Numbered from the stretch's first letter, positions 2,616 through 63,283 are shown. The stretch: 64,000 nucleotides of DNA from Candidatus Desulfarcum epimagneticum (GCA_900659855.1 CAACVI010000001.1:113179-177178); one strand, 5' to 3'. Numbers and translations: made by a program. The notes: a model not told the origin generated them from the sequence alone.

Positions 2616-2769
2616 TGGCGTCGTAAAAAAAATGCGTCGCAGCGCTTATTTTTAATCGAGGCATACTACATGTATTGCCTCAATTAAAAATAAGCGCCAC
2701 GCCTTGTGGCTTAAATTTTAGCACATGGAATTTTTAACTTAGCCATCCCAAGCTTTTTTACGAGTTTAT
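2616..2769 (+). mobile_element. MITE-like repeat copy C1 (hairpin type A plus TTAAATTTTAGCA module)
   Basis: Starts TGGCGTCGTAAAAAAAA directly after the TGA stop at 2613-2615 and ends TTTTTTACGAGTTTAT. Internal hairpin TTATTTTTAATCGAGGCATAC/GTATTGCCTCAATTAAAAATAA. Flanks GAGTTTTGA and CAATTTTGA match at 7 of 9 positions. Confidence 0.8.
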
Positions 2770-4490: not shown

Positions 4491-5488
4491 AAATCGGTTC
4501 CGTGACGCTTGAAAATCCCCTGGTTCTGGCCCCCCTGGCCGGCATCACCCATCTTGCCTTTCGCTTCCTGGCAAAGGAAGAGGGCTGCGCCCTGGTGTGC
4601 TCGGAAATGATCAGCGCCAACGGCCTGGTCCGGGGCTCGGCCAAAACCCGTAAGATGCTGGAAAGCGATCCTAAGGAAAGGCCCCTTTCCGTCCAGATTT
4701 TCGGCTCCGAGCCGCCGGTCATGGCCGAGGCGGCCCGGATGGTGGAGGAGGCGGGCGCCGATATTCTGGACATCAACTTCGGGTGCTCGGTGAGAAAAAT
4801 CCTGAAAAGCGGCTCAGGCTCGGCCCTGATGAAATCCCCCCGAAACGCCGAGACGCTGATCAAAGCCGTTCGAAAGGCCATTCAAATCCCTTTGACCATC
4901 AAAATTCGGAGCGGGTGGGACCCCTCGGGGGAGGACGCCCTGAAAATCGCCGAGATCGCCGAAGACCAGGGCGTGGACGCCATCGCGGTTCATCCCAGGA
5001 CCGCCCGGCAGGGCTTTTCCGGAACCGCCGACTGGTCCGTGATCGCCGCCGTCAAGAGGGCCGTGTCCATTCCGGTGACGGGAAACGGCGACGTGACCCG
5101 CCCCGGGGATGTCTTGAGGATGATGGCCGAAACCGGGTGCGACGCCGTGATGATCGGAAGGGCGGCCATCGGAAATCCCTGGATTTTTTCCCAGGCCGCC
5201 GCCCTTTTAAAGGGGGACGAAACAAAGGAGCCGTCTTTGTCCGAGCGGTTCCGCGTCATGAAACGGTTCCTGGAGGGCTGCGTGGCGCTTTTCGGGGAAA
5301 AAAACGCCTGCCGCATGATGCGAAGCCGTCTTCCCTGGTTTGTCAAGGGGCTTCCCCACAGCTCCCGGTTCAGAGAATCGGTCAAACAGGTGTCCAGCCA
5401 AAAAGAGGCCGGGGAGCGGATAGAGTCCTACCGGGGTTTTTTAGAAGAGCGCCGCCCCGGCCCTCAGCCGCCTTCCGACGCCGGATAG
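4487..5488 (+). CDS. dus: tRNA-dihydrouridine synthase (Dus family)
   Basis: 333-aa ORF with a typical Dus N-terminus (LENPLVLAPLAGIT), DINFGC and AVHPRTARQ motifs. Confidence 0.85.
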   Translation: MKIGSVTLENPLVLAPLAGITHLAFRFLAKEEGCALVCSEMISANGLVRGSAKTRKMLESDPKERPLSVQIFGSEPPVMAEAARMVEEAGADILDINFGCSVRKILKSGSGSALMKSPRNAETLIKAVRKAIQIPLTIKIRSGWDPSGEDALKIAEIAEDQGVDAIAVHPRTARQGFSGTADWSVIAAVKRAVSIPVTGNGDVTRPGDVLRMMAETGCDAVMIGRAAIGNPWIFSQAAALLKGDETKEPSLSERFRVMKRFLEGCVALFGEKNACRMMRSRLPWFVKGLPHSSRFRESVKQVSSQKEAGERIESYRGFLEERRPGPQPPSDAG

Positions 5489-5906
5489 GCCGCCGACACC
5501 CGGGCGTCGATCCCCCCCCGGGCGGTGAATTCCCCCGTCACTTCCATTCTTTTGGGTTTGATCCTTTCACACAAATCGTCCAGTATCCGGTTGACCACAT
5601 GCTCATAAAAAATCCCCACGTTCCGGTACTGAAGCAGGTAATACTTCAGGGATTTCAACTCGATGATTTTTTGATCCGGCGTGTACCGCACGGAAATGGT
5701 CGCGTAATCCGGAAGACCCGTCATGGGGCAGACCGATGTGAACTCGGGCTGGCGAATCACGATATCGATGTCTCTTTTCCCGCTGTAGGCGTAGTCGATG
5801 GGATCGAGAATCCCGGCCTTCACAGAGCCGGGATCTTCAATGGCATAGGGCGGTTTGGGGGCGGCTTTTTTTGCGGTCATGGCGAAACGCTCCTCACATG
5901 TCTTCA
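5450..5906. repeat. left copy of a 457-bp direct repeat (whole queF, its 5' leader and the last 13 codons of dus)
   Basis: By-eye alignment to 16436-16892 shows the same length, no indels and about a dozen substitutions. Confidence 0.9.
5464..5880 (-). CDS. queF: NADPH-dependent 7-cyano-7-deazaguanine (preQ0) reductase, unimodular type, copy 1
   Basis: 138-aa ORF with catalytic-Cys context VCPMTGLPD and the QueF motif ELKSLKYYL. Converges on dus and overlaps its 3' end by 25 nt. Confidence 0.9.
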   Translation of the reverse strand: MTAKKAAPKPPYAIEDPGSVKAGILDPIDYAYSGKRDIDIVIRQPEFTSVCPMTGLPDYATISVRYTPDQKIIELKSLKYYLLQYRNVGIFYEHVVNRILDDLCERIKPKRMEVTGEFTARGGIDARVSAAYPASEGG

Positions 5907-13726: not shown

Positions 13727-14580
13727 GCGCTGGAAAACTTGCCTGTTATTCGTCTTTAAAAAAAAATCCACCAAAAAAAACAAACGGCTCAACATTTTCC
13801 ACACAAAAAAAATTCATATTTTTCGGGTTGTGTCAAGGATTTCGAGGAAATATTTAAAATTTTGCTTATATTTTTATTCAATTATGAATCATTAAATTAT
13901 AACTTTTATGCGCAAAATCACGTTCAAAAAAGGGATTTGACGGCGCCAGAGAAGGGGCTTAAATAAAAAGCGAGAAGTTTTAATAGTATTTCTTGATATA
14001 TCAATGGATTAGAAGGAAAAACAGGGGCCTTTCCCGGGTTATATTTTTAATAAAAAATGACCGAAAAATTATCATTTTTGGCTTCAAAATTCGGCCCGAA
14101 CAGGAGAGGCTCGACCCGATTTTAAGATTTTTTGGGCTTCCATGCAGCGAATCCGGCGTTGCGACCGGCTTATGACCGGCGCCGAGTCCTCGGACCTTGT
14201 CGGCCCTGATGCCCTCGAACATACACATACTGTGACGACAAAAGCGCTCAAGCTTCTTGATGGGAAGAAGGTTGAAGGATATTTGCGTATTGAGAGAGTT
14301 TATGGTCAAACAGGGGGTTGTAAACAGCAAAGAATTTAAAAAGTGAACGGAACTCTCGGTAGAAGGCCCATTTTTCGGGGCTGGTCCATCGCCTATCCGC
14401 TCGGATTGATCTGGTGGCGCTCTTGGAGCTTGCCGCGCTTTTTTTTCGACGCAATGTTTTTCTCTCAAGGTTTTTTCAAAAACAGTCCGCTTTTTCCCTT
14501 GCGCGTCTATCCTGGAATGGGTATATTAAAAAAGAATGCGCAAAAGACTTTCAGGAATTTATAGATGCGAGGAACGGCCC

Positions 14581-15036
14581 ATGAGCGATGAAAACAGCCA
14601 GGCGCAAGCGCCTCAAATGGACATGCAGATGCTGATCGCCGGGATTATTCCCAACGTCAAGCATTTCGACAGCCGTTTTGATCTGCTCCAGGTTCAGATA
14701 GACGGCCTGAAAAATGGTCAGAACGAATTGAAGGACAGGATCGGACGCCTGGAGACAGGGGTGGACCGGCGTTTTGAGCAGGTGGACAAACGCTTTGCGC
14801 AGGTGGACAAACGTTTTGAACAGGTGGACAAACGCTTCGAGCAGGTGGATCGGCGTTTCGAGCAGGTGGACAAACGTCTGGAGCAAATCGCGGTTTCAAT
14901 TGATCGCCTGGGGGACAAGCTGGATCGAAGAGATGAGGGCCAGCGGAATTTTACGATCAAAATGTTTTCCATCGCCGTCACCATATCCGTTCTGGGAGTG
15001 TCCGGGGCGTTCTTAAAGGTTTTGGGCATCATTTGA
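14581..15036 (+). CDS. tail-anchored coiled-coil protein with tandem (R/K)RFEQVD heptads
   Basis: ATG at 14581 has GAGGA 7 nt upstream (the track ORF starts at 14536). Contains six 21-bp/7-aa repeats and one C-terminal hydrophobic helix (MFSIAVTISVLGVSGAFLKVLGII). Confidence 0.6.
   Translation: MSDENSQAQAPQMDMQMLIAGIIPNVKHFDSRFDLLQVQIDGLKNGQNELKDRIGRLETGVDRRFEQVDKRFAQVDKRFEQVDKRFEQVDRRFEQVDKRLEQIAVSIDRLGDKLDRRDEGQRNFTIKMFSIAVTISVLGVSGAFLKVLGII
14761..14886 (+). repeat. 6 x 21-bp tandem repeat (GTGGACAAACGYTTYGAGCAG-like) encoding the heptads
   Basis: Units read directly at 14761, 14782, 14803, 14824, 14845 and 14866. Confidence 0.9.
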
Positions 15037-15097
15037 TGGCGTCGTAAAAAAAATGCGTCGCAGCGCTTATTTTTAATCAAGGCATACTACTGTCATG

Positions 15098-15721
15098 TCA
15101 AGCGTTAAAAGTCGGATAAAGCCGACGCAGTTTTATTCGCGCGTCTTCAGATGTGAATTGCCAATTTACTTTGGCGTTTTTATTGTTTCTGGCTTTCTGC
15201 CATGCATGCGCTTCCTTTTTCACGTTTTGAATATCGTCAATTCTTCTTTTTAAACACTGCCCAATGAGAACATTTAATTCTATTTCAGCCATATTTAGCC
15301 AACTGCCGTGTTTTGGAGTATACACAAAATCGAATCTGTCCCATAATTTTTTTGCCTTGTCCGGTCGAAAAGTTTCATACAAAGCGCCAGGCGTATGTGT
15401 GTTCAGATTGTCCATGACCAGCGTTATCTTTTGAGCTTTTTCATAAGCCGAGGCAATTTCTTTTATAAAAAATGCCCAGTCTTTTTTTGTCTTTCTCTCA
15501 GTGATTTTTACCATTCGGTTTCCCGCAAGAGGCTCACATGCCATGAAAATATTACACACCCCGAAACGCTTGTATTCATAATCATACCTCTCCGGTTTGC
15601 CGGGCGACGCTGAAATAGGAATCTTTGTTTCTCCAATCAATTGTTTTGGCGATTCATCCATGCATATCACTGGAAACTTTGGATCAAATGGACGTTTGTA
15701 AACATCCAAAACTTTTTCCAT
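15098..15721 (-). CDS. IS630-family transposase, DDE catalytic part (orfB)
   Basis: 207-aa ORF with IS630/Tc1-like stretches (ICMDESPKQL, ITLVMDNLNTH, HGSWLNMAEIE). Confidence 0.75.
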   Translation of the reverse strand: MEKVLDVYKRPFDPKFPVICMDESPKQLIGETKIPISASPGKPERYDYEYKRFGVCNIFMACEPLAGNRMVKITERKTKKDWAFFIKEIASAYEKAQKITLVMDNLNTHTPGALYETFRPDKAKKLWDRFDFVYTPKHGSWLNMAEIELNVLIGQCLKRRIDDIQNVKKEAHAWQKARNNKNAKVNWQFTSEDARIKLRRLYPTFNA

Positions 15722-15756
15722 ATGCGCGACAAAGCTGCAATTTTGTTTCGGCGGAA

Positions 15757-16230
15757 TTACCCATCCTTTACGCAGCCATGGTTTGATTTCGTTTTTTTTA
15801 AAATGCCACGAATAGTTTCATGTGATACACTTTCAATGTAATCAAGCTCGACAACCTTTTCTGCCAGCAAACGCAAACTCCATCTGGAAAAACCCTCTGG
15901 GGCCTCGCTGCAACTCAGCGCAACCAAGCGTGCCTCGAAATCCCCGTCGGTTTTCTTTTTATATATACGACTTCCTTTTTTCCCGTTCAGTGTAATATCA
16001 ATACCATCTTCAACAAAACGTTTTTTCACGCGGTCAATTTTTTTCATACTGACGTTCAGAACTTTTGAAATCTCTTTGTTTTTAGAGCGATTTTTCTGAA
16101 ATTCACCATCATCACATCCAAGCAAAATTAATGCGTTAAGAATTTTTTGAGACTTATGTTTTCCCTTTGATGTGAGCGCCATAAGATTGTTTCGTTCAGC
16201 TTCTGTCAACGTTACTATATATTTTTTCAT
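15757..16230 (-). CDS. IS630-family transposase, N-terminal HTH part (orfA)
   Basis: 157-aa ORF ending just after an A8 run. A -1 shift in that run reads on as KKNEIKPWLRKGWVIPPKQNCSFVAHMEKV.. into orfB. This is either programmed frameshifting or a homopolymer error. Confidence 0.75.
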   Translation of the reverse strand: MKKYIVTLTEAERNNLMALTSKGKHKSQKILNALILLGCDDGEFQKNRSKNKEISKVLNVSMKKIDRVKKRFVEDGIDITLNGKKGSRIYKKKTDGDFEARLVALSCSEAPEGFSRWSLRLLAEKVVELDYIESVSHETIRGILKKTKSNHGCVKDG

Positions 16231-16435
16231 AATACGCCCCCCTTCGGCAATTATGAAAAATATAGCATACTTTATGCGACTTTACAAGCTTGACGTGACA
16301 CTACATGTATTGCCTCAATTAAAAATAACCACTACGCCTTGTATATCGAATTTTTAACTTAGCCATCCCAAACTTTTTTACGAGTTTATCATCATTTGAC
16401 TGATCCCTGGCCCCGCCCGTTTGATCTCTGAAAGA

Positions 16436-16892
16436 CGCCGCCCCGGCCCTCAGCCGCCGTCCGACGCCGGGTAGGCCGCCGACACCCGGGCGCCGATCCC
16501 CCCCCGGGCGGTGAATTCCCCCGTCACTTCCATTCTTTTGGGTTTGATCCTTTCACACAGATCGTCCAGTATCCGGTTGACCACATGCTCATAAAAAATC
16601 CCCACGTTCCGGTACTGAAGCAGGTAATACTTCAGGGATTTCAACTCGATGATCTTCTGATCCGGCGTGTACCGAACGGAAATGGTCGCGTAATCCGGAA
16701 GACCCGTCATGGGGCACACCGATGTGAACTCGGGCTGGCGAATCACGATGTCGATGTCTCTTTTCCCGCTGTAGGCGTAGTCGATGGGATCGAGAATCCC
16801 GGCCTTCACAGAGCCGGGATCTTCAATGGCATAGGGCGGTTTGGGGGCGGCTTTTTTTTCAGTCATGGCGAAACGCTCCTCACATGTCTTCA
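16436..16892. repeat. right copy of the 457-bp direct repeat
   Basis: Aligns to 5450-5906 (see the left copy). Confidence 0.9.
16450..16866 (-). CDS. queF: preQ0 reductase, copy 2
   Basis: Start taken at MTEKKAAPK (cat at 16864-16866), matching copy 1. The two proteins differ at 3 of 138 residues (A3E, D->G, E->D). The track ORF extends further upstream to 17040. Confidence 0.85.
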   Translation of the reverse strand: MTEKKAAPKPPYAIEDPGSVKAGILDPIDYAYSGKRDIDIVIRQPEFTSVCPMTGLPDYATISVRYTPDQKIIELKSLKYYLLQYRNVGIFYEHVVNRILDDLCERIKPKRMEVTGEFTARGGIGARVSAAYPASDGG

Positions 16893-17094
16893 ATGACGCG
16901 TTCAAATTCGGACTTCCTGGATTCGGCATATCAAATTTTCCCCGGCCCGGCCAGGGGTTTTTCGAAAAGTGTGGGGAATGTTCGCATGGCGGGGCGCTTT
17001 TTTGTTTTTGAAAAAAACTTGATTTAATATTTATTTTCACATAAACATTTCTTAAAATTAATTTTTAATCATCCTTTTTAAGGATTTCTATCAA

Positions 17095-19245
17095 ATGATA
17101 AATTTTTTTTTGTTTTTTTTAAACCGATTTCGTTTTTTTCTGTTTGCGGCCCTGTGCATGATTCATTTCATGGCCGGAGGGGCCGCCGGGGCCACAAAGA
17201 CCACCCGGGATTATGTCAGATTTTCATGGTCTCCCATCTCCAACGTGACCTCCTATCATTTCCAGGTCAGCGATCGGGCCGATTTTTCAAATCTGCTGGT
17301 TGATGAGCGTCTGGACAGACGGCTTCCCACCTATCTGTGCCGCCCTCCTCTGCCGGAAGGAACGATTCATGCAAGGGTCAGGGGAAGAAAGAAAACCACC
17401 GGACTTTACGGCCCTTTTGTCCGATTGGAGCCCGTTGTGATTGAAGAGGCGGATCCCGATCCACGCTGGATCTCCGACACCCCTGATTCATTATCGGGAG
17501 TGACGGTCGACCCCCGCCCCACATTTTCGTGGTCTCCCATCCCCAACGTGACCTCTTATCAGTTTCAGGCCGGCGATCAGGCGGATTTTTCAGGCCTGCT
17601 GATTGATGAGCGTCTGGACAGACTTGTCACATCCCATACGCCCGACTTTGATCTGCCGGACGGAACGATTTACGCAAGGGTGAGGGGAAGGAAAAAGACC
17701 ACCGGACTTTACGGACCCTTTGTCCAAATGCCCTCCGTCGTGATTGACACGACTCCGCCCGGCGCTGATGACAAGCCTGTTCCGGAGATTTTTCCCGGCG
17801 ACGCCACCTCTGATCAAACCCCGGCGTTCATATGGTCCCCGCCCCGGGAGTCGGACGATGTGGTCGCCTATCGTCTCGCGGTCAGAGGCGATCATTTGCG
17901 CAATCATTTCACAGTCGGCGATATCCTGAATTTCAGCGCTCTGATCCAAAAGATCAATGACCCTGACAAAGCTGTTTCACAGTACGTCAAGGGAAAATTT
18001 TCATCTTCCGGGAAAACGCTTTTAAATGCCTATCAGGGTTCCCGTACCCTTTCCGGACCTGAAAAAAGGGTTATTGCGGGAAATCTCAACAATTTGCTTG
18101 ACGACCCTGACCTGTATTCGGAAGAGCGTTTCCCCATGGATTCTCTTACCCCGGAAATTCGGTGGGCGATGGTGGGAAATCCCGGGGCCAAAGATTTACA
18201 ACTTTCCGTTTTGAATCGCCGTCTGCTGGAATATGCCTTTCAGGAGGAAATTATTGCTTCAAGCGCTGTCTTTTCGGACTTAATGGATGGCGATAGATAT
18301 TTTTTCATCAACGCAGTGATCAAGGCATCCGACGCGTCTGTATTGACTTCGTCAGGGACAACAGGGGTTTCCTGTTCTGTTTCCACGGACTCTTCCAAAA
18401 AGTTCACATGCGAGCCGACGCCCCGCCTGACAGATGGGGCCTTCTACGCGAGGGTCAGCGCCATCGATCCTTTCTGGAATGAAGGCCCCCTTGTGGACAT
18501 GGGGTGGCTGTTGGTGGACACTGTCCCCCCGGGTCCTCCTCAGAACACTGGGCTTTCAGTCGGCTCCGATCCCCAAAGGCCAAAATTTTCGTGGGACCCG
18601 CCGGCGGATTCTTCCGATGTGAAGGATTATGAGGTTTTGATGGCCGATTCTCCCTCCTTTGACGCGGACAGCGCCAAAGGCCATGCCAAAATTATGGTGG
18701 GCGATGGAAGCGTCACCAACCACAAAACCGCTATCCGACTTTCCTGCGAGGCGACCTCCAACTCATACCAATGCGTTCCCACATCTGATTTGAGCTCCGG
18801 AACCATATACGCCAAAGTCAGGGCTGTGGACGGCGCGGAGAATCCAAGCTCTTTTACCACTGCGTCTTCGCATACGATAAGCGCTGCCTCTTCCAGGCGG
18901 CGTTCTTCCTCGTCATCCGGGTCTCCGAATGCCCAGGAAACGGGCTTGGCTACTACTGTGGGGTCCATTGATGTCGGGATGGGCATTGAGGATCAGGCGC
19001 TTTTCAAAGACCCCCATCTGGCCGCCGCCATCCGGGAGGCTCTGGGTGTGGAAGAGGGGAGCCCCATCGCCCGGGGGGATTTGGCGACGCTGGAGAGCCT
19101 GGATATAAGCGAGCGGGAGGTGACGGATTTCAGCGGCCTGGAAAACGCCGTTCGCCTTTTCAGTCTGACGATCAACCTCTCCCAGGCTTCAGAGCTGTGG
19201 AAGTTGTCCGATCTTGAGTCGTTAAGAGAGGTGATTATTGAATAA
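17095..19245 (+). CDS. large secreted protein with repeated FN3-like modules and a C-terminal LRR-like segment
   Basis: 716-aa ORF with a hydrophobic N-terminus. It has two near-duplicate modules of about 90 aa (FSWSPI(S/P)NVTSY(H/Q)FQ...ARVRGRKKTTGLYGPFV) and further (F/I)(S/I)W(S/D)PP..D.V..Y modules. The C-terminus is LRR-like (LATLESLDIS..FSGLENAVRLFSL). Confidence 0.6.
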   Translation: MINFFLFFLNRFRFFLFAALCMIHFMAGGAAGATKTTRDYVRFSWSPISNVTSYHFQVSDRADFSNLLVDERLDRRLPTYLCRPPLPEGTIHARVRGRKKTTGLYGPFVRLEPVVIEEADPDPRWISDTPDSLSGVTVDPRPTFSWSPIPNVTSYQFQAGDQADFSGLLIDERLDRLVTSHTPDFDLPDGTIYARVRGRKKTTGLYGPFVQMPSVVIDTTPPGADDKPVPEIFPGDATSDQTPAFIWSPPRESDDVVAYRLAVRGDHLRNHFTVGDILNFSALIQKINDPDKAVSQYVKGKFSSSGKTLLNAYQGSRTLSGPEKRVIAGNLNNLLDDPDLYSEERFPMDSLTPEIRWAMVGNPGAKDLQLSVLNRRLLEYAFQEEIIASSAVFSDLMDGDRYFFINAVIKASDASVLTSSGTTGVSCSVSTDSSKKFTCEPTPRLTDGAFYARVSAIDPFWNEGPLVDMGWLLVDTVPPGPPQNTGLSVGSDPQRPKFSWDPPADSSDVKDYEVLMADSPSFDADSAKGHAKIMVGDGSVTNHKTAIRLSCEATSNSYQCVPTSDLSSGTIYAKVRAVDGAENPSSFTTASSHTISAASSRRRSSSSSGSPNAQETGLATTVGSIDVGMGIEDQALFKDPHLAAAIREALGVEEGSPIARGDLATLESLDISEREVTDFSGLENAVRLFSLTINLSQASELWKLSDLESLREVIIE

Positions 19246-25167: not shown

Positions 25168-25474
25168 CGACATCGTAAAAAATGCGTCGCGGTGGTTTTG
25201 TTCCTTCGGCATACTATATGTATGGCCTCAGGGTCAAAAAACCACCACGCCTTGTGACTTAAATTTTGATGGCGTCGTAAAAAATCCGATCTACTGCGTT
25301 ATAGCGGTTATTTTTAATTGAGGCATACTACATGTATTGCCTCAATTAAAAATAACCACTACGCCTTGTATATCGAATTTTTAACTTAGCCATCCCAATC
25401 TTTTTTACGAGTTTATTAAATTTTAGCATATGGAATTTTTACGATGTCGTCCGATCCATTTTTTATGGGTTTAT
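25168..25474 (+). mobile_element. MITE-like repeat copy C3 (hairpin type B), carrying nested copy C4
   Basis: Begins CGACATCGTAAAAAATGCGTCGCGGTGG after TGA at 25165-25167 (not a gene stop here). It resumes after C4 as TAAATTTTAGCATATGGAATTTTTACGATGTCGTCCGATCCATTTTTTATGGGTTTAT. Confidence 0.75.
25270..25416 (+). mobile_element. MITE-like repeat copy C4 (type A), nested within C3
   Basis: Full-length copy TGGCGTCGTAAAAAATCCGATCTACTGCGTT...TTTTTTACGAGTTTAT. The host-element sequence TTAAATTTT is present on both sides (25258-25266 and 25416-25424, the right copy sharing its first T with the terminal T of the element's TTTAT end). Confidence 0.8.
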
Positions 25475-41676: not shown

Positions 41677-41814
41677 CAGCATCGCAAAAAAATGCGTCAC
41701 AGCGCTTTTTTGTTCGTTCGGCATGCCACACGTATGGCCTCTCTCTCAAAAAAGCGCGATGCCTTGTATATCGAATTTTTACGATGTCGTTTAATCGATT
41801 TTTTACGAGTTTAT
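41677..41814 (+). mobile_element. MITE-like repeat copy C5 (type B variant)
   Basis: CAGCATCGCAAAAAAATGCGTCAC... begins directly after the rpsR TGA. It ends TTTTTTACGAGTTTAT. Flanks CAATTTCTGA (41667-41676) and CAATTTTTGA (41815-41824) match at 9 of 10 positions. Confidence 0.8.
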
Positions 41815-46002: not shown

Positions 46003-46079
46003 GGGTTTAAAACTCCTTTTATGTGACAGGGTTTGATAAAGTCGTAAAAAAGCTTGGGATGGCGCCATCAGGTTTTGGA

Positions 46080-52407: not shown

Positions 52408-52559
52408 TTTTGGTCTCCGTTTTGAGGTTTTAAATGCGTCGGAATCCGTTTTGATTTTTTTTTCGCCTGACATTCTTTATGGCGGTTTGAAGAAAATGAA
52501 TCAATGCCGATGATGGGAAAAAATGGAAAAAAAAGGAAAAAAAAGAAAGAAAGGATCAG

Positions 52560-52688
52560 GCGGCATCGTAAAAATTCCATATGCTAAAATTTAAGCCACA
52601 AGGCGTGGTGGTTTTTAAATAAGCGAGGCGATACCCAGTATGCCGAAGGAACAAAAAATCACCGCGACGCATTTTTTTTACGATGTCG
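52560..52688 (-). mobile_element. MITE-like repeat copy C6 (type B, inverted orientation, lacks the right tail)
   Basis: On the minus strand, CGACATCGTAAAAAAAATGCGTCGCGGTG...TTAAATTTTAGCATATGGAATTTTTACGATGCCG begins directly after the thpR TGA (tca at 52689-52691). Confidence 0.75.
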
Positions 52689-58219: not shown

Positions 58220-58367
58220 CAGCGTCGTAAAAAATCCGATCTGCTGCGTTCCGGCTCTTATTTTGAATTGAGGCATACTACATGTATTGCCTCAATTCAA
58301 AATAAGCCCCGCGCCTTGCATATCGAATCTTTTACGACGCTGTCCCGTAATTTTTTGCGGGGTTTAT
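58220..58367 (+). mobile_element. MITE-like repeat copy C7 (type A variant with perfect inner inverted repeats)
   Basis: CAGCGTCGTAAAA...TTTTACGACGCTG forms a 13-bp perfect inner inverted repeat. The tail is TCCCGTAATTTTTTGCGGGGTTTAT. It starts directly after the TGA at 58217-58219. Flanks CAAAAATGA and GAAAAATGA match at 8 of 9 positions. Confidence 0.8.
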
Positions 58368-58376
58368 GAAAAATGA

Positions 58377-58433
58377 TGATGTCGTAAAAATCTCATCAAC
58401 CGCCTTCCGGCTCTTTTTTCTTTTATTCAGCCT
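58377..58433 (+). mobile_element. decayed partial MITE copy (C7b)
   Basis: TGATGTCGTAAAAATCTCATCAACCGCCTTCCGGCTCTTTT... aligns with the left third of C7 (..GTCGTAAAAAATCCGATCTGCTGCGTTCCGGCTCTTATTT). Confidence 0.45.
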
Positions 58434-59134: not shown

Positions 59135-59215
59135 CGACAGCATCGTAAAAATAACCGCCACGCCTTGTATATCGAATTCTTTACGACGCTGTCCCATGAT
59201 TTTTTACGAGTTTAT
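59135..59215 (+). mobile_element. MITE-like repeat copy C8 (81-bp internal-deletion derivative lacking the hairpin)
   Basis: CGACAGCATCGTAAAAATAACCGCCACGCCTTGTATATCGAATTCTTTACGACGCTGTCCCATGATTTTTTACGAGTTTAT begins directly after the upp TAA. Flanks GAAATAA and TAAATAA. Confidence 0.75.
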
Positions 59216-59221
59216 TAAATA

Positions 59222-60079
59222 ATGACGCTCTCAAAAACCCTCATCCGCTCCCTGGCGGGGATCGTTTTGTCCGCGATCCTGTTTTTTTCGTCCGGCCTCA
59301 AGGTCCCCGGACTGGACCCCGGCGCCGACGACTATTTCCGGGACGCCATGGTCAAAGCCGGGGCCGCCTACGCCACCTGCCGGGCCATCAACGCCTCGGT
59401 GTCCATTATCAAAGAATCCAAACTCCAGCTGGAGCCGGCCGGGGTGGGGATATCCGTGGCCGCCGGCCAGGCGCTGGACCCCATTGACGACATGACCGAG
59501 CGGCTCTCGGACGTGCTGGTGGTCGCCATCGTCTCACTGGGGGTCCAGAAGCTGGCCCATGAAATCGGCGTGTCCCTGGCTCCCCCGATTCTGGCTGTCC
59601 TGGCCCTTCTGCTGTCCGCTTTGATATGGATCAAAAATGAAAAGGCGGCGTTTTTTCAAAAAGCCCTGGTCCGCTTTTTATTCCTCATCCTCATCGTCCG
59701 TTTTTTCCTGCCCCTGTCGTCTCTGGCCAATGGGTTTCTTCAAACGCGGTTTTTCGACCCCCAGGCGTCCCAGGCCCGCCAGGAGCTGGCCCTGGTCTCC
59801 TCCGAGGCCGACCTCCTCAAAGACCTCTCCCTTTCCCCGTCCCCCGGGATTTTGGGCGCCATCAAAAACAGCGCCGCGCTCTTCAAACAACAAACCGCGC
59901 GTTTCAAACGCTCCCTTTCAGCCATTTCCAAAAACATGGGCCTCGTCATCGAAAATCTTTTGAAGCTGACCTTCCTGTACGTGGGATTTTTTCTGATCCA
60001 GGTCATCATCCTGCCCCTTCTGGCCTTCTGGCTCCTTTCCCGGGGGGCCCGGGTTCTGTTTGATGGGGGAATCCGGTAA
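59222..60079 (+). CDS. hypothetical membrane protein
   Basis: 285-aa ORF with several TM helices and no recognised motif. Confidence 0.5.
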   Translation: MTLSKTLIRSLAGIVLSAILFFSSGLKVPGLDPGADDYFRDAMVKAGAAYATCRAINASVSIIKESKLQLEPAGVGISVAAGQALDPIDDMTERLSDVLVVAIVSLGVQKLAHEIGVSLAPPILAVLALLLSALIWIKNEKAAFFQKALVRFLFLILIVRFFLPLSSLANGFLQTRFFDPQASQARQELALVSSEADLLKDLSLSPSPGILGAIKNSAALFKQQTARFKRSLSAISKNMGLVIENLLKLTFLYVGFFLIQVIILPLLAFWLLSRGARVLFDGGIR

Positions 60080-60130: not shown

Positions 60131-60159
60131 TTGACAATCTTTATACCATCGGTTATACT
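60131..60159 (+). promoter_or_regulatory. sigma70-like promoter of the toxin-antitoxin pair
   Basis: TTGACA (60131-60136), 17-nt spacer, TATACT (60154-60159). GGAGG RBS lies before the ATG at 60187. Confidence 0.5.
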
Positions 60160-60186: not shown

Positions 60187-60435
60187 ATGCCGAATGTAAA
60201 GACCGCCATATCGGTTGAAAAATCTATTTTTGAGCGGATGGACGTCCTGGCAAAAAATTTAAACACATCAAGAAGCCGCCTGTTTGCCATGGCGGCCCGG
60301 GAATTTCTCCAGCGCCATCATCATAAAGAGCTTCTCAAATCGATCAACCATGCTTATGATGATCTGTCTGAATCCGATCCCCTTATCCAAAAGATGCGCC
60401 CGGGGCATCATGAGATGGTCAAGGACCAATGGTAA
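60187..60435 (+). CDS. ribbon-helix-helix (CopG/MazE-like) antitoxin
   Basis: 82-aa product with an RHH-type N-terminus (VKTAISVEKSIFERMDVLAKNLNTSRSRLFAMAAREFL). It lies upstream of a PemK/MazF-like gene. Confidence 0.65.
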   Translation: MPNVKTAISVEKSIFERMDVLAKNLNTSRSRLFAMAAREFLQRHHHKELLKSINHAYDDLSESDPLIQKMRPGHHEMVKDQW

Positions 60436-60582
60436 TGGCGTCGTAAAAAATCCGATCTACTGTGTTGCAGCGCTTATTTTTAATTGAGGCATACTACATG
60501 TATTGCCTCAATTAAAAATAACCACTACGCCTTGTATGTCGAATTTTTAACTTAGCCATCCCAATCTTTTTTACGAGTTTAT
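60436..60582 (+). mobile_element. MITE-like repeat copy C9 (type A), inserted between antitoxin and toxin genes
   Basis: Full-length copy flanked by a perfect 9-bp direct repeat CAATGGTAA (60427-60435 and 60583-60591). Confidence 0.85.
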
Positions 60583-60584
60583 CA

Positions 60585-60941
60585 ATGGTAATCAACCAGG
60601 GCGATATATTCTGGATAGATTTCGGCGCCCCTGACGGATCAGAGCCCGGTTATCGTCATCCCCACGTGGTCGTCCAAAACAACATTTTCAACCGCAGCCG
60701 AATCAATACGGTTGTGGTCTGCGCTTTGACCTCCAATCTCAAAAGAGCCGAGGCCCCGGGAAATGTGGCCCTGAAAAAAGGCGAGGCCAATCTGGAAAAA
60801 AGAAGCGTGGTCAATGTTTCCCAAATTTTCACTGTGAACAAAAGCGATCTGTTCCATAAAATCGGAACCCTGTCAAAGGATCGCGTGGCCCGGATTCTGC
60901 TGGGCATTCAAATTCTCATGGCGCCCGGCGATGTGGATTAA
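60585..60941 (+). CDS. PemK/MazF-family endoribonuclease toxin
   Basis: 118-aa ORF with the typical N-terminus (QGDIFWIDFG...G.E..YRHPHVVVQ) and VVCALTS. Confidence 0.8.
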   Translation: MVINQGDIFWIDFGAPDGSEPGYRHPHVVVQNNIFNRSRINTVVVCALTSNLKRAEAPGNVALKKGEANLEKRSVVNVSQIFTVNKSDLFHKIGTLSKDRVARILLGIQILMAPGDVD

Positions 60942-60980
60942 AAGGAAATCCAGGTCTGGGAAATGCGCGACACATGGGGT

Positions 60981-61029
60981 GGCGCGCGGCATGGTAGAGA
61001 CGCACGGCGTGCGTCTCCCACGACGCGCC
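60981..61029. other. GC-rich nested stem-loop downstream of the toxin gene (no U-tract)
   Basis: GAGACGCAC-GGC-GTGCGTCTC (60997-61017) nested within GGCGCG...CGCGCC. Confidence 0.4.
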
Positions 61030-61049
61030 GAAAACAAACCGACCCTTGA

Positions 61050-61235
61050 CTTTTTGGGGCTGTGGGCGTAGCGTTATGCCATTTTGGTTTCATGGGCGAG
61101 CTGGATCAGGAGAAGCTGTCGGCTCTTCTGGAATTGAAATACCATTCAGTCAGAGACGCGGTGGCGGAATTGGGCGGCGTTCCCGAAATACGGGACATGT
61201 TTGTGGGATTTCAAGAGAATTTGTACGCGCCCTGA
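61050..61235 (+). pseudogene. possible 3' remnant of a type I restriction enzyme R subunit (EcoEI_R_C-like tail)
   Basis: A frame different from the track ORF reads ...MGELDQEKLSALLELKYHSVRDAVAELGGVPEIRDMFVGFQENLYAP*. This resembles the conserved HsdR C-terminal tail as I remember it. No upstream body of the gene is present. Confidence 0.35.
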
Positions 61236-61294
61236 ATGCATGATGATTCTTATCTGAAACCGTCCGCGTCCGCGAATAATAAGAGGAAAACCAA

Positions 61295-62038
61295 ATGACC
61301 CATTACGCCAGGCTGGATCAGCTCAAGCAAAAACTGGATTCATTTCGCCCGCTTCCCCCGGAAACAGTCGCCGGCCTCCATGAGGACATTGCGTTGCGCT
61401 GGACCTATCATTCCAACGCCATTGAAGGCAACACCCTGACTTTAAAGGAAACCAAGGTCGTTTTGGAAGGCGTGACCATCGGCGGCAAAACCATGCGGGA
61501 GCATTTCGAGGTCATCAATCATCGCCAGGCCATTGGTTTTGTGGAGGAGATAGCGAAAAAAGAGGAGCCCCTGTCCGAATGGCGGATCAAATCCATTCAC
61601 CAGCTTGTTTTGAAAAATATTGACGACCCCAACGCCGGGGTCTGGCGGCGTTGCAATGTCGTGATTTCAGGGGCGGATCATACGCCGCCGGATTTCACGC
61701 AGGTTCCGTCTGAAATGGAGCGGCTGATTGAATGGCATGGCCGCGAGGGGCAAAAACGCCATCCGGTGGAAAGGGCCGCCAGGCTTCACGCCGATTTCGT
61801 CAAGATACATCCCTTTGTCGACGGAAACGGCAGGACCGCCCGGCTGCTGATGAATTTTGACCTGATGAAGGACGGCTTTCCCCCGGCGGTTCTTGGTGTT
61901 GAAAAACGCCTGGAATATTACGAATCTTTGGACACGGCGCATACAACCGGCGATTATGGGCCGTTTCTGTCATTGATGGCCGGGGTTGTGGAAGACGGGT
62001 TTAAACCTTACCGGCGCGTCCTGGGGATCGACATATGA
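61295..62038 (+). CDS. fic: Fic/DOC-family protein
   Basis: 247-aa ORF with the canonical Fic motif HPFVDGNGRTARLL. Confidence 0.85.
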   Translation: MTHYARLDQLKQKLDSFRPLPPETVAGLHEDIALRWTYHSNAIEGNTLTLKETKVVLEGVTIGGKTMREHFEVINHRQAIGFVEEIAKKEEPLSEWRIKSIHQLVLKNIDDPNAGVWRRCNVVISGADHTPPDFTQVPSEMERLIEWHGREGQKRHPVERAARLHADFVKIHPFVDGNGRTARLLMNFDLMKDGFPPAVLGVEKRLEYYESLDTAHTTGDYGPFLSLMAGVVEDGFKPYRRVLGIDI

Positions 62039-62063
62039 GATTTAGAGACAAGGCATGCCTTGA

Positions 62064-62210
62064 CGACATCGTAAAAAAATCGATCTACTGCGTTGCGGCG
62101 TTTTTTTGTTCGTTCGGCATACTATATGTATGGCCTCTCTCTCAAAAAACCACCACGCCTTGTATATCGAATTTTTACGATGCCGTCTGATCTATTTTTT
62201 ACGAGTTTAT
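62064..62210 (+). mobile_element. MITE-like repeat copy C10 (type B)
   Basis: CGACATCGTAAAAAAATCGATCTACTGCGTT...TTTTTACGATGCCGTCTGATCTATTTTTTACGAGTTTAT. Flanks CATGCCTTGA (62054-62063) and CATGCCTTGG (62211-62220) match at 9 of 10 positions. Confidence 0.8.
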
Positions 62211-63045: not shown

Positions 63046-63107
63046 TTATTGACAATCCTTGCCGGCGTTGGTATTGTCTTTTTTATCATTTTAAACAGAT
63101 GGGGGCG

Positions 63108-63161
63108 CCGGCATCGCAAAAAGATGCCCACGCCCTGTATATCGGATTTTTACGATTTTAT
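63108..63161 (+). mobile_element. short decayed MITE copy C11
   Basis: CCGGCATCGCAAAAAGATGCCCACGCCCTGTATATCGGATTTTTACGATTTTAT retains the left end, the ACGCCYTGTATATCG core and the right end. Confidence 0.55.
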
Positions 63162-63283
63162 CAAACAGGATATTCTTCTATTTGATATCATTGTCGTGTA
63201 AATGTCATCATGATGTCGTGGCGGCATCCTCTTTTCTCTGGTATTGAAATGGTCAGCATTCAATCAAACACAAAGGAAAACCC

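Follow-up and report, generated by a model that had tools for sequence, protein, structure and literature searches.

Probable insertion of a miniature inverted-repeat element at the stop/start overlap of a MazEF-like toxin-antitoxin pair in Candidatus Desulfarcum epimagneticum

The toxin-antitoxin pair described here lies in a 64,000-nt stretch of the genome of Candidatus Desulfarcum epimagneticum, hereafter the window, and all coordinates are window positions. Its two genes are separated by a 147-bp repeat at 60436-60582 on the plus strand, which belongs to the type-A subfamily of a dispersed repeat family (nhmmer E = 1.3e-42 against the family profile). We give a probability of about 85% to the reading that this repeat is a non-autonomous transposable element of the miniature inverted-repeat type (MITE), which inserted into a MazEF6-like operon with duplication of its target and kept both genes intact. 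The ancestral antitoxin ended ...GAC CAA TGG TAA with the toxin ATG inside this sequence (ATGGTAA, a 7-nt overlap). A staggered cut across CAATGGTAA, once repaired, doubled those 9 (possibly 10) bases, with the left copy preserving the last codons and the stop of the antitoxin and the right copy preserving the ATG of the toxin.

The perfect 9-bp repeat CAATGGTAA directly abuts both ends of the element. Its left copy (60427-60435, plus strand) holds the antitoxin's last codons and stop, its right copy (60583-60591, plus strand) holds the toxin ATG, and 149 nt now lie between the antitoxin stop and the toxin ATG. When the T that follows each copy is included, the repeat extends to 10 bp, CAATGGTAAT. 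Deletion of the element and one repeat in silico yields GACCAATGGTAATCAACC, and the same removal in a longer context yields GACCAATGGTAATCAACCAGGG. Perfect 9-mer pairs spaced 120-200 bp apart are not rare in themselves, numbering 97 in the window versus ~26 in shuffled sequence; what exceeds chance here is their position, flush against both ends of a family member, and three other copies likewise have perfect repeats at the corresponding boundaries. At one fixed register, the chance of a repeat match is ~4e-6. The left junction at this site is the target's own TAA and not the TGA usual for the family, evidence that the junction bases derive from the target. A preceding annotation made from the DNA alone (the sequence-only reading) had placed a MITE exactly on the stop/start overlap with both open reading frames (ORFs) intact, and its coordinates, sequences and 149-nt spacing were all reproduced.

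Homologous modules reveal what this junction looks like when it is uninterrupted. Around six homologous toxins (77-82% identical), 12 loci were fetched from other genomes and metagenomes; 11 of them include the upstream region, and the junction was read in 10. In each of those 11, an upstream ORF stops 7 nt beyond the toxin ATG. This ORF encodes 82-84 aa in the homologous loci, or 65 aa as called in L021, and the four antitoxins translated from L001 and L004-L006 align with the window antitoxin. In 10 of the 10 loci read, which represent 6 different toxin sequences, the junction is ATGGTAA, ATGGTGA or ATGGTAG without interruption, and in L001, L021 and L022 it is CAATGGTAATCAACCAGGG, identical to the reconstruction. 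Because the homologous junctions match the reconstruction, the reconstructed overlap is the normal state of the module. The sequence-only reading had stated that removal of the element rebuilds the overlap and had proposed a comparison with uninterrupted relatives; GACCAATGGTAATCAACC agrees with all ten junctions, and none of them carries a spacer, with or without the element.

By its profile and structure matches, the gene pair is a MazEF-like type II toxin-antitoxin module, for which RNase toxicity and neutralisation by the antitoxin are predicted. The toxin gene (60585-60941, plus strand) encodes an intact PemK/MazF-family protein of 118 aa that starts ATG GTA ATC within the right-hand CAATGGTAA. 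It matches Pfam PF02452 (PemK) at 5e-28 over 107 of 109 profile positions, and its closest solved structure is M. tuberculosis MazF6 (3.3e-22). The antitoxin gene (60187-60435, plus strand) is an 82-aa ORF ending GAC CAA TGG TAA; the product is probably a MazE6-like ribbon-helix-helix protein, with a weak match of its N-terminus to MazE6 (E = 0.0053) and no Pfam or NCBIfam family matched by the ORF. These matches bear out the earlier description of the pair as mazEF-like. Neither ORF is truncated, and because the toxin also retains every invariant residue of the homologue alignment, it is no obvious pseudogene. Upstream of the antitoxin, a sigma-70-like consensus match, TTGACA-17-TATACT (60131-60159, plus strand; 11 of 12 consensus positions), is presumed to be the operon promoter.

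The element has the ends of a mobile element and the fold of a long hairpin. No ORF of at least 30 aa lies wholly inside 60436-60582. The 5′ terminal inverted repeat, TGGCGTCGTAAAAAATCC, occupies 60436-60453 and the 3′ terminal inverted repeat, TCTTTTTTACGAGTTTAT, occupies 60565-60582 (both given on the plus strand), the latter within an unpaired A/U-rich tail at 60564-60582. Family ends are inverted, reading (TGA)TGGCGTCGTAAAAAA at the 5′ end and TTTTTTACGAGTTTAT(CAA) at the 3′ end, and are near-perfect inverted copies of each other in the relative L015 (GATGGCGTCGTAAAAAGTC and GATGGCTTCGTAAAAAGTC). On the plus strand, 60430-60563 is predicted to form a long imperfect hairpin of 134 nt (51 pairs, -50.5 kcal/mol, z = -6.4) around a central near-perfect palindrome at 60474-60521 with a stem of ~21 bp and a loop of 5 nt. 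The 5′ inverted repeat pairs in this predicted fold with an internal inverted copy at 60537-60560, on the 3′ side of the central hairpin. Two details of the sequence-only reading had to be revised accordingly: the stem, given there as 25 bp, is ~21 bp with one bulge, and the A- and T-runs said to flank the hairpin are part of the stem, where they pair with one another.

The hairpin core of 36 nt is matched 4 times in the window, where 0 matches are expected. Since RNAalifold on a MAFFT alignment returned the outer stems only, with the variable centre misaligned, the copies were folded one by one. A comparable long hairpin is present in 17 of 17 family members folded singly, with central arms that are wholly different in sequence, while the alignment of family copies shows compensatory changes in the outer stems. 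Co-evolving transposase-binding ends would account for the outer stems, but not for the centre. The Rfam search of the whole window at gathering threshold gave no hits, and the element gave only hits to generic long hairpins (miRNA models) that fell far short of the threshold. An intrinsic terminator was considered and rejected, with no terminator-like site in 60436-60582, a U6 run that starts 8 nt past the hairpin base and a stem that is A/U rich; nor did a scan of 60436-60582 predict a promoter on the sense strand.

Family members were located by BLAST and an nhmmer profile, which together give ~13 sites in the 64 kb, or ~3% of the window. The copy at 60436 shares 96.6% identity with one 35 kb away at 25270-25416, which is itself nested in a type-B copy (25168-25474, plus strand). 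The nested type-A copy is flanked by perfect TTAAATTTT (25259/25416), and its empty target, TTAAATTTTAGCA, is seen in uninterrupted type-B copies. Another copy, on the plus strand at 15037-16389, is split into 15037-15090 and 16305-16389 by an IS630-family insertion (15091-16300, flanked by CTAC) in the loop of its central hairpin, and is bounded by the perfect 10-bp duplication CATCATTTGA at 15027-15036 and 16390-16399. The IS630 ORFs, 15757-16230 and 15098-15721 on the minus strand, correspond to separate HTH and DDE_3 parts (NCBIfam transpos_IS630, 2e-43). Full copies also lie at 2616-2769 (plus strand), where the left-junction TGA is the stop of a 526-aa beta-CASP gene, at 52546-52688 (minus strand), where it is the stop of a LigT-like gene, and at 41677-41814 (plus strand), flanked by CAATTTCTGA and CAATTTTTGA. 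An internally deleted remnant at 46036-46066 (minus strand) is flanked by CAAAACCTGA and CAAACCCTGT.

The 58-63 kb region holds six copies or remnants within 5 kb. A full copy (58220-58367) followed by a partial one (58374-58425) spans 58220-58425 on the plus strand after the stop of an MFS gene, with CAAAAATGA and GAAAAATGA flanking the copy at 58220. A copy without the central hairpin (59138-59215, plus strand; flanks GAAATAACGA and TAAATAATGA) separates the upp stop TAA from the ATG of the gene that follows; judged from the degenerate repeats around it (59135-59224), GAAATAACG and TAAATAATG, it probably entered a TAATG stop/start overlap in a second, older event of this kind. A Fic/DOC-family gene (61295-62038) comes immediately downstream of the toxin-antitoxin pair and is followed by a type-B copy (62064-62210, plus strand) between perfect copies of CATGCCTTG (62054/62211), and a short degenerate copy is found at 63105-63165 (plus strand). 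Flanking repeats are perfect over 9-10 bp at 4 window copies and at the copy in L014, which has a perfect 9-bp duplication, CATTGTTGA, and stands in tandem with another copy; they are near-perfect at no fewer than 5 others. A 9-bp duplication had been claimed from the sequence, with the toxin-antitoxin site as its cleanest evidence in the window. The duplication itself stands, while the strict length of 9 bp gives way to a family range of 8-10 bp and this site is not the sole clean case, a perfect 10-bp one existing at another copy.

The pattern to which the flanking repeats conform is CAA-N3-TTG, roughly palindromic, with an A after it; hence the left junction is usually TGA, and CAATGGTAA is a near match to CAA-N3-TTG(A). 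At five window copies (2616, 15037, 52546, 58220 and 60436), the upstream gene terminates with the left-junction TGA or TAA, as ORF or Pfam evidence supports. The junction TGA at 41677 closes only a doubtful 91-codon frame, and the copy at 59138 has its junction 3 nt beyond the upstream stop codon. Outside the window the junction TGA is the upstream stop at both L008 copies and at L020, at least 3 cases. The exact position of the insertion in the toxin-antitoxin operon is therefore attributed to target choice together with selective removal of insertions that disrupt the antitoxin.

Orientation follows the genes as well. All 8 window copies that abut the 3′ end of a gene point their 5′ end at that gene, on both strands. 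In L007 (4883-5035, minus strand) and L014 (709-869, plus strand), the 3′ end of the copy faces the gene and its terminal TCA is the complement of the gene's TGA stop. Thus both element ends read TGA inward, and since L007 and L014 show the opposite orientation, orientation is not fixed by the mechanism. An orientation coupled to replication was rejected, as copies switch strand back and forth within 20 kb, in step with gene direction.

Relatives of the family occur in Desulfobacterota and Nitrospirota genomes with the same architecture and with the conserved blocks TGATGGCGTCGTAAAAAGTCCGATCTACTGCGTTGC and CGCCTTGTATATCGAATTTTTA. A conserved core of 21-22 nt found members in one Thermodesulfovibrionia genome, two Deltaproteobacteria metagenome-assembled genomes and six metagenome contigs. 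The 5′-end pattern found a member in one predicted viral contig (L020 2333-2478; IMGVR_UViG_3300037247_002436) that starts at the TGA stop of the upstream ORF, and viruses are a possible vehicle for spread of the family between phyla. A blastn search with the element against PLSDB plasmids gave no match.

At the toxin-antitoxin locus, antitoxin and toxin would still be co-transcribed from the promoter at 60131-60159 through the element, because the element has neither a sense-strand promoter nor a canonical terminator. In the native module, a ribosome that ends at the TAA could restart at the ATG 4 nt upstream, a coupling that the 149-nt spacing would make impossible. Shine-Dalgarno pairing before the toxin ATG goes from -4.6 kcal/mol (AAGGA) without the element to -2.5 kcal/mol (GAG) with it, and the mean unpaired probability of the toxin start region is 0.60 with the element versus 0.46 without, the A/U-rich tail being unpaired in the predicted fold. 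Toxin synthesis relative to antitoxin should fall, as coupling would be lost and a weaker Shine-Dalgarno sequence would lie behind a 134-nt hairpin. The sequence-only reading had expected a changed toxin:antitoxin ratio; the likely change, towards less toxin, would do no harm, which would account for the tolerance of the insertion. By analogy with REP and Correia elements, the hairpin may in addition make the upstream mRNA more stable or bring about its processing.

Several observations weigh against a MITE insertion with target duplication by a staggered cut. The comparison loci are homologous modules with different neighbour genes in other organisms, rather than a sister strain's version of this very chromosomal site, and the length of the duplication is ambiguous at 8, 9 or 10 bp depending on where the ends are drawn. 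The left junction of the nested copy contains a GA that is absent from its empty target, which a fixed-length staggered cut does not predict. In an inverted-repeat scan, the window and ~90 kb of related loci contain no autonomous insertion sequence with matching ends; such ends occur only at short copies, and no pair encloses a gene. A truncated copy at L012:2050, considered as a candidate partner, merely abuts a convergent gene, and the IS630 at 15091-16300 was dismissed as a parent by its unrelated ends and TA-type target. The additional GA and the missing transposase partner would instead fit hairpin-dependent or site-specific integration, like that of integron attC, CTX-phage/Xer or REPIN/RAYT, where the repeats are a shared core or microhomology and not a staggered-cut duplication. 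This would also accommodate the element-adjacent bases (TGA at left, CAA at right), where conservation exceeds that in the distal halves of the repeat copies, the central stem, which stays paired though its sequence changes completely between subfamilies, and the bottom strand, which in 14 of 17 copies gives a more stable fold than the top, although these share ancestry and are not independent, so the p-value is not relied on. We consider such integration quite unlikely, since the left junction at the toxin-antitoxin site is the target's TAA, as plain target duplication predicts, and several copies lie between perfect 9-10-bp repeats that are unrelated in sequence. Inverted ends of ~20 bp (ATGGCGTCGTAAAAAGTC at both ends of L015) are, moreover, typical of transposase-bound ends, and the integron core motifs RYYYAAC and GTTRRRY are absent on inspection.

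Selection could instead have kept the insertion as a regulatory intercistronic RNA hairpin that insulates or tunes the two cistrons, the family being REP/BIME- or Correia-like in its host. The uniform orientation of the window copies at gene 3′ ends, set against relatives elsewhere in both orientations, points this way, as do the very short spacers that copies occupy within apparent operons and the unpaired 3′ tail that leaves the toxin start accessible. That bias rests on 8 copies, however, and the abundance of copies, the deleted remnants and the nesting resemble a selfish burst in a host-associated genome, which makes this explanation very improbable. Least credible, and already largely refuted, is that the spacer is ancestral or an assembly artefact of a collapsed repeat. 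The genome is that of an uncultured symbiont and comes from short reads, and the sequence-only reading had itself raised the worry of an artefact. In the Logan contigs, a separate assembly of run ERR2856278, one contig spans 59166-60455 (the antitoxin and 20 nt of the element) and a second spans 60574-62106 (the element's final 9 nt together with the right repeat and the toxin), each with 0 mismatches; both end inside repeats, as is usual for short-read assemblies. A second assembler thus recovers both junctions, and the arrangement is therefore no artefact of one assembly. An ancestral spacer is likewise at odds with the ten homologous junctions that lack one and with its 96.6% identity to a copy 35 kb away. 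We favour insertion of a MITE with target duplication over each of these. A broader and unlikely extension is that the family is a structure-constrained mobile module that homes to gene ends (stop codons) with an inward TGA at each of its own ends, is retained in this symbiont only if co-oriented with transcription, and acts as an intercistronic insulator or decoupler at the RNA level or moves by an undescribed hairpin-dependent route. If true, the toxin-antitoxin insertion would be a natural case of toxin synthesis uncoupled from antitoxin synthesis.

Elements of this kind, and events of this kind, are known, while the repeat family itself was not found described, either in Rfam or in the searchable literature (queried with sequence strings and with the topics MITE plus toxin-antitoxin and stop codon). 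Like other MITEs, the family is non-coding and shorter than 500 bp, has terminal inverted repeats and target duplications, and occurs as many dispersed copies with empty as well as filled sites. The ERIC elements of enterobacteria fall in the same size class and have inverted ends and co-transcribed long hairpins. REP and REPIN sequences are abundant intergenic hairpins after gene ends, with arms that co-vary, and are mobilised by RAYT (Y1/HUH) with no target duplication. REPINs lack terminal inverted repeats of the kind seen here, and the clear 8-10-bp duplications that flank the element speak against REP/REPIN membership.

The closest precedent, set beside our element by description, is Chunjie, a MITE in Geobacter uraniireducens Rf4 (178-235 bp, 9-bp repeats, ~21-bp ends), which is reported to lie within an operon that it leaves undisrupted (Chen et al. 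2008, summarised in PMC3184786 and PMC10969869). Chunjie is also a MITE in a former deltaproteobacterium, and its 9-bp direct repeats agree in length with those here. It differs in size (178-235 bp versus 147 bp), the summaries of it report no toxin-antitoxin junction, and the one Chunjie target repeat taken from PMC6042816, ACGACCGGT, does not fit CAA-N3-TTG. MITEAba12 of Acinetobacter, whose autonomous partner ISAba12 is known, is similarly short (113 bp) and non-coding with inverted ends and 9-bp target duplications (PMC6382973); its ends, GGCTTTGTTGCACAAA, are unrelated to ours, its targets show no consensus beyond AT richness, and it was found disrupting genes (PMC6382973). The Correia elements of Neisseria (~100-150 bp, with inverted ends) are co-transcribed and form long RNA hairpins that can be cut by RNase III or alter mRNA stability (PMC2649163). 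By analogy, Correia and ERIC elements are likely functional counterparts of our element. They duplicate TA (2 bp), in contrast to 8-10 bp here, and share no sequence similarity with it, and the length of the duplications excludes membership of the Correia/ERIC type. The mycobacterial MIRUs (40-100 bp) lie between operon genes, with ends over the flanking stop and start codons, and are part of polycistronic RNA (Supply et al. 1997 as summarised in PMC3184786). They share with our element this placement over stop and start codons, but are summarised as having 4-bp direct repeats and small ORFs that preserve coupling (PMC3184786). Since our element has no bridging ORF, coupling would be lost here, unlike in MIRUs.

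The locus is a natural before-and-after pair, with a 7-nt coupling overlap in ten related loci versus genes set 149 nt apart by a hairpin with their coding intact. As such, it is a ready-made test of how far coupling sets the toxin:antitoxin ratio. The repeat family, found in a symbiont of a magnetotactic protist and common to several bacterial phyla, has a target preference that puts copies at stop codons in operons. Many stop-to-start spacers in such genomes are these elements, which is relevant to annotation, and the family bears on the ability of reduced or host-associated genomes to withstand mobile-element bursts.

The window also holds other repeats. The stop codon of ORF 14536-15036 is the left-junction TGA of the copy at 15037, and within this ORF ~8 tandem 21-bp units (14739-14906) encode QVDKRFE-type heptads. 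Two queF-like genes on the minus strand, at 5464-5880 and 16450-17040, are 97.4% identical over 462 bp and ~11 kb apart; the pair is a recent segmental duplication, one copy of which adjoins the IS630-interrupted repeat. At 17217-17747, repeats that are 83-87% identical recur at 303-bp spacing inside an ORF of 716 aa that weakly matches Ig-like and fn3 profiles.

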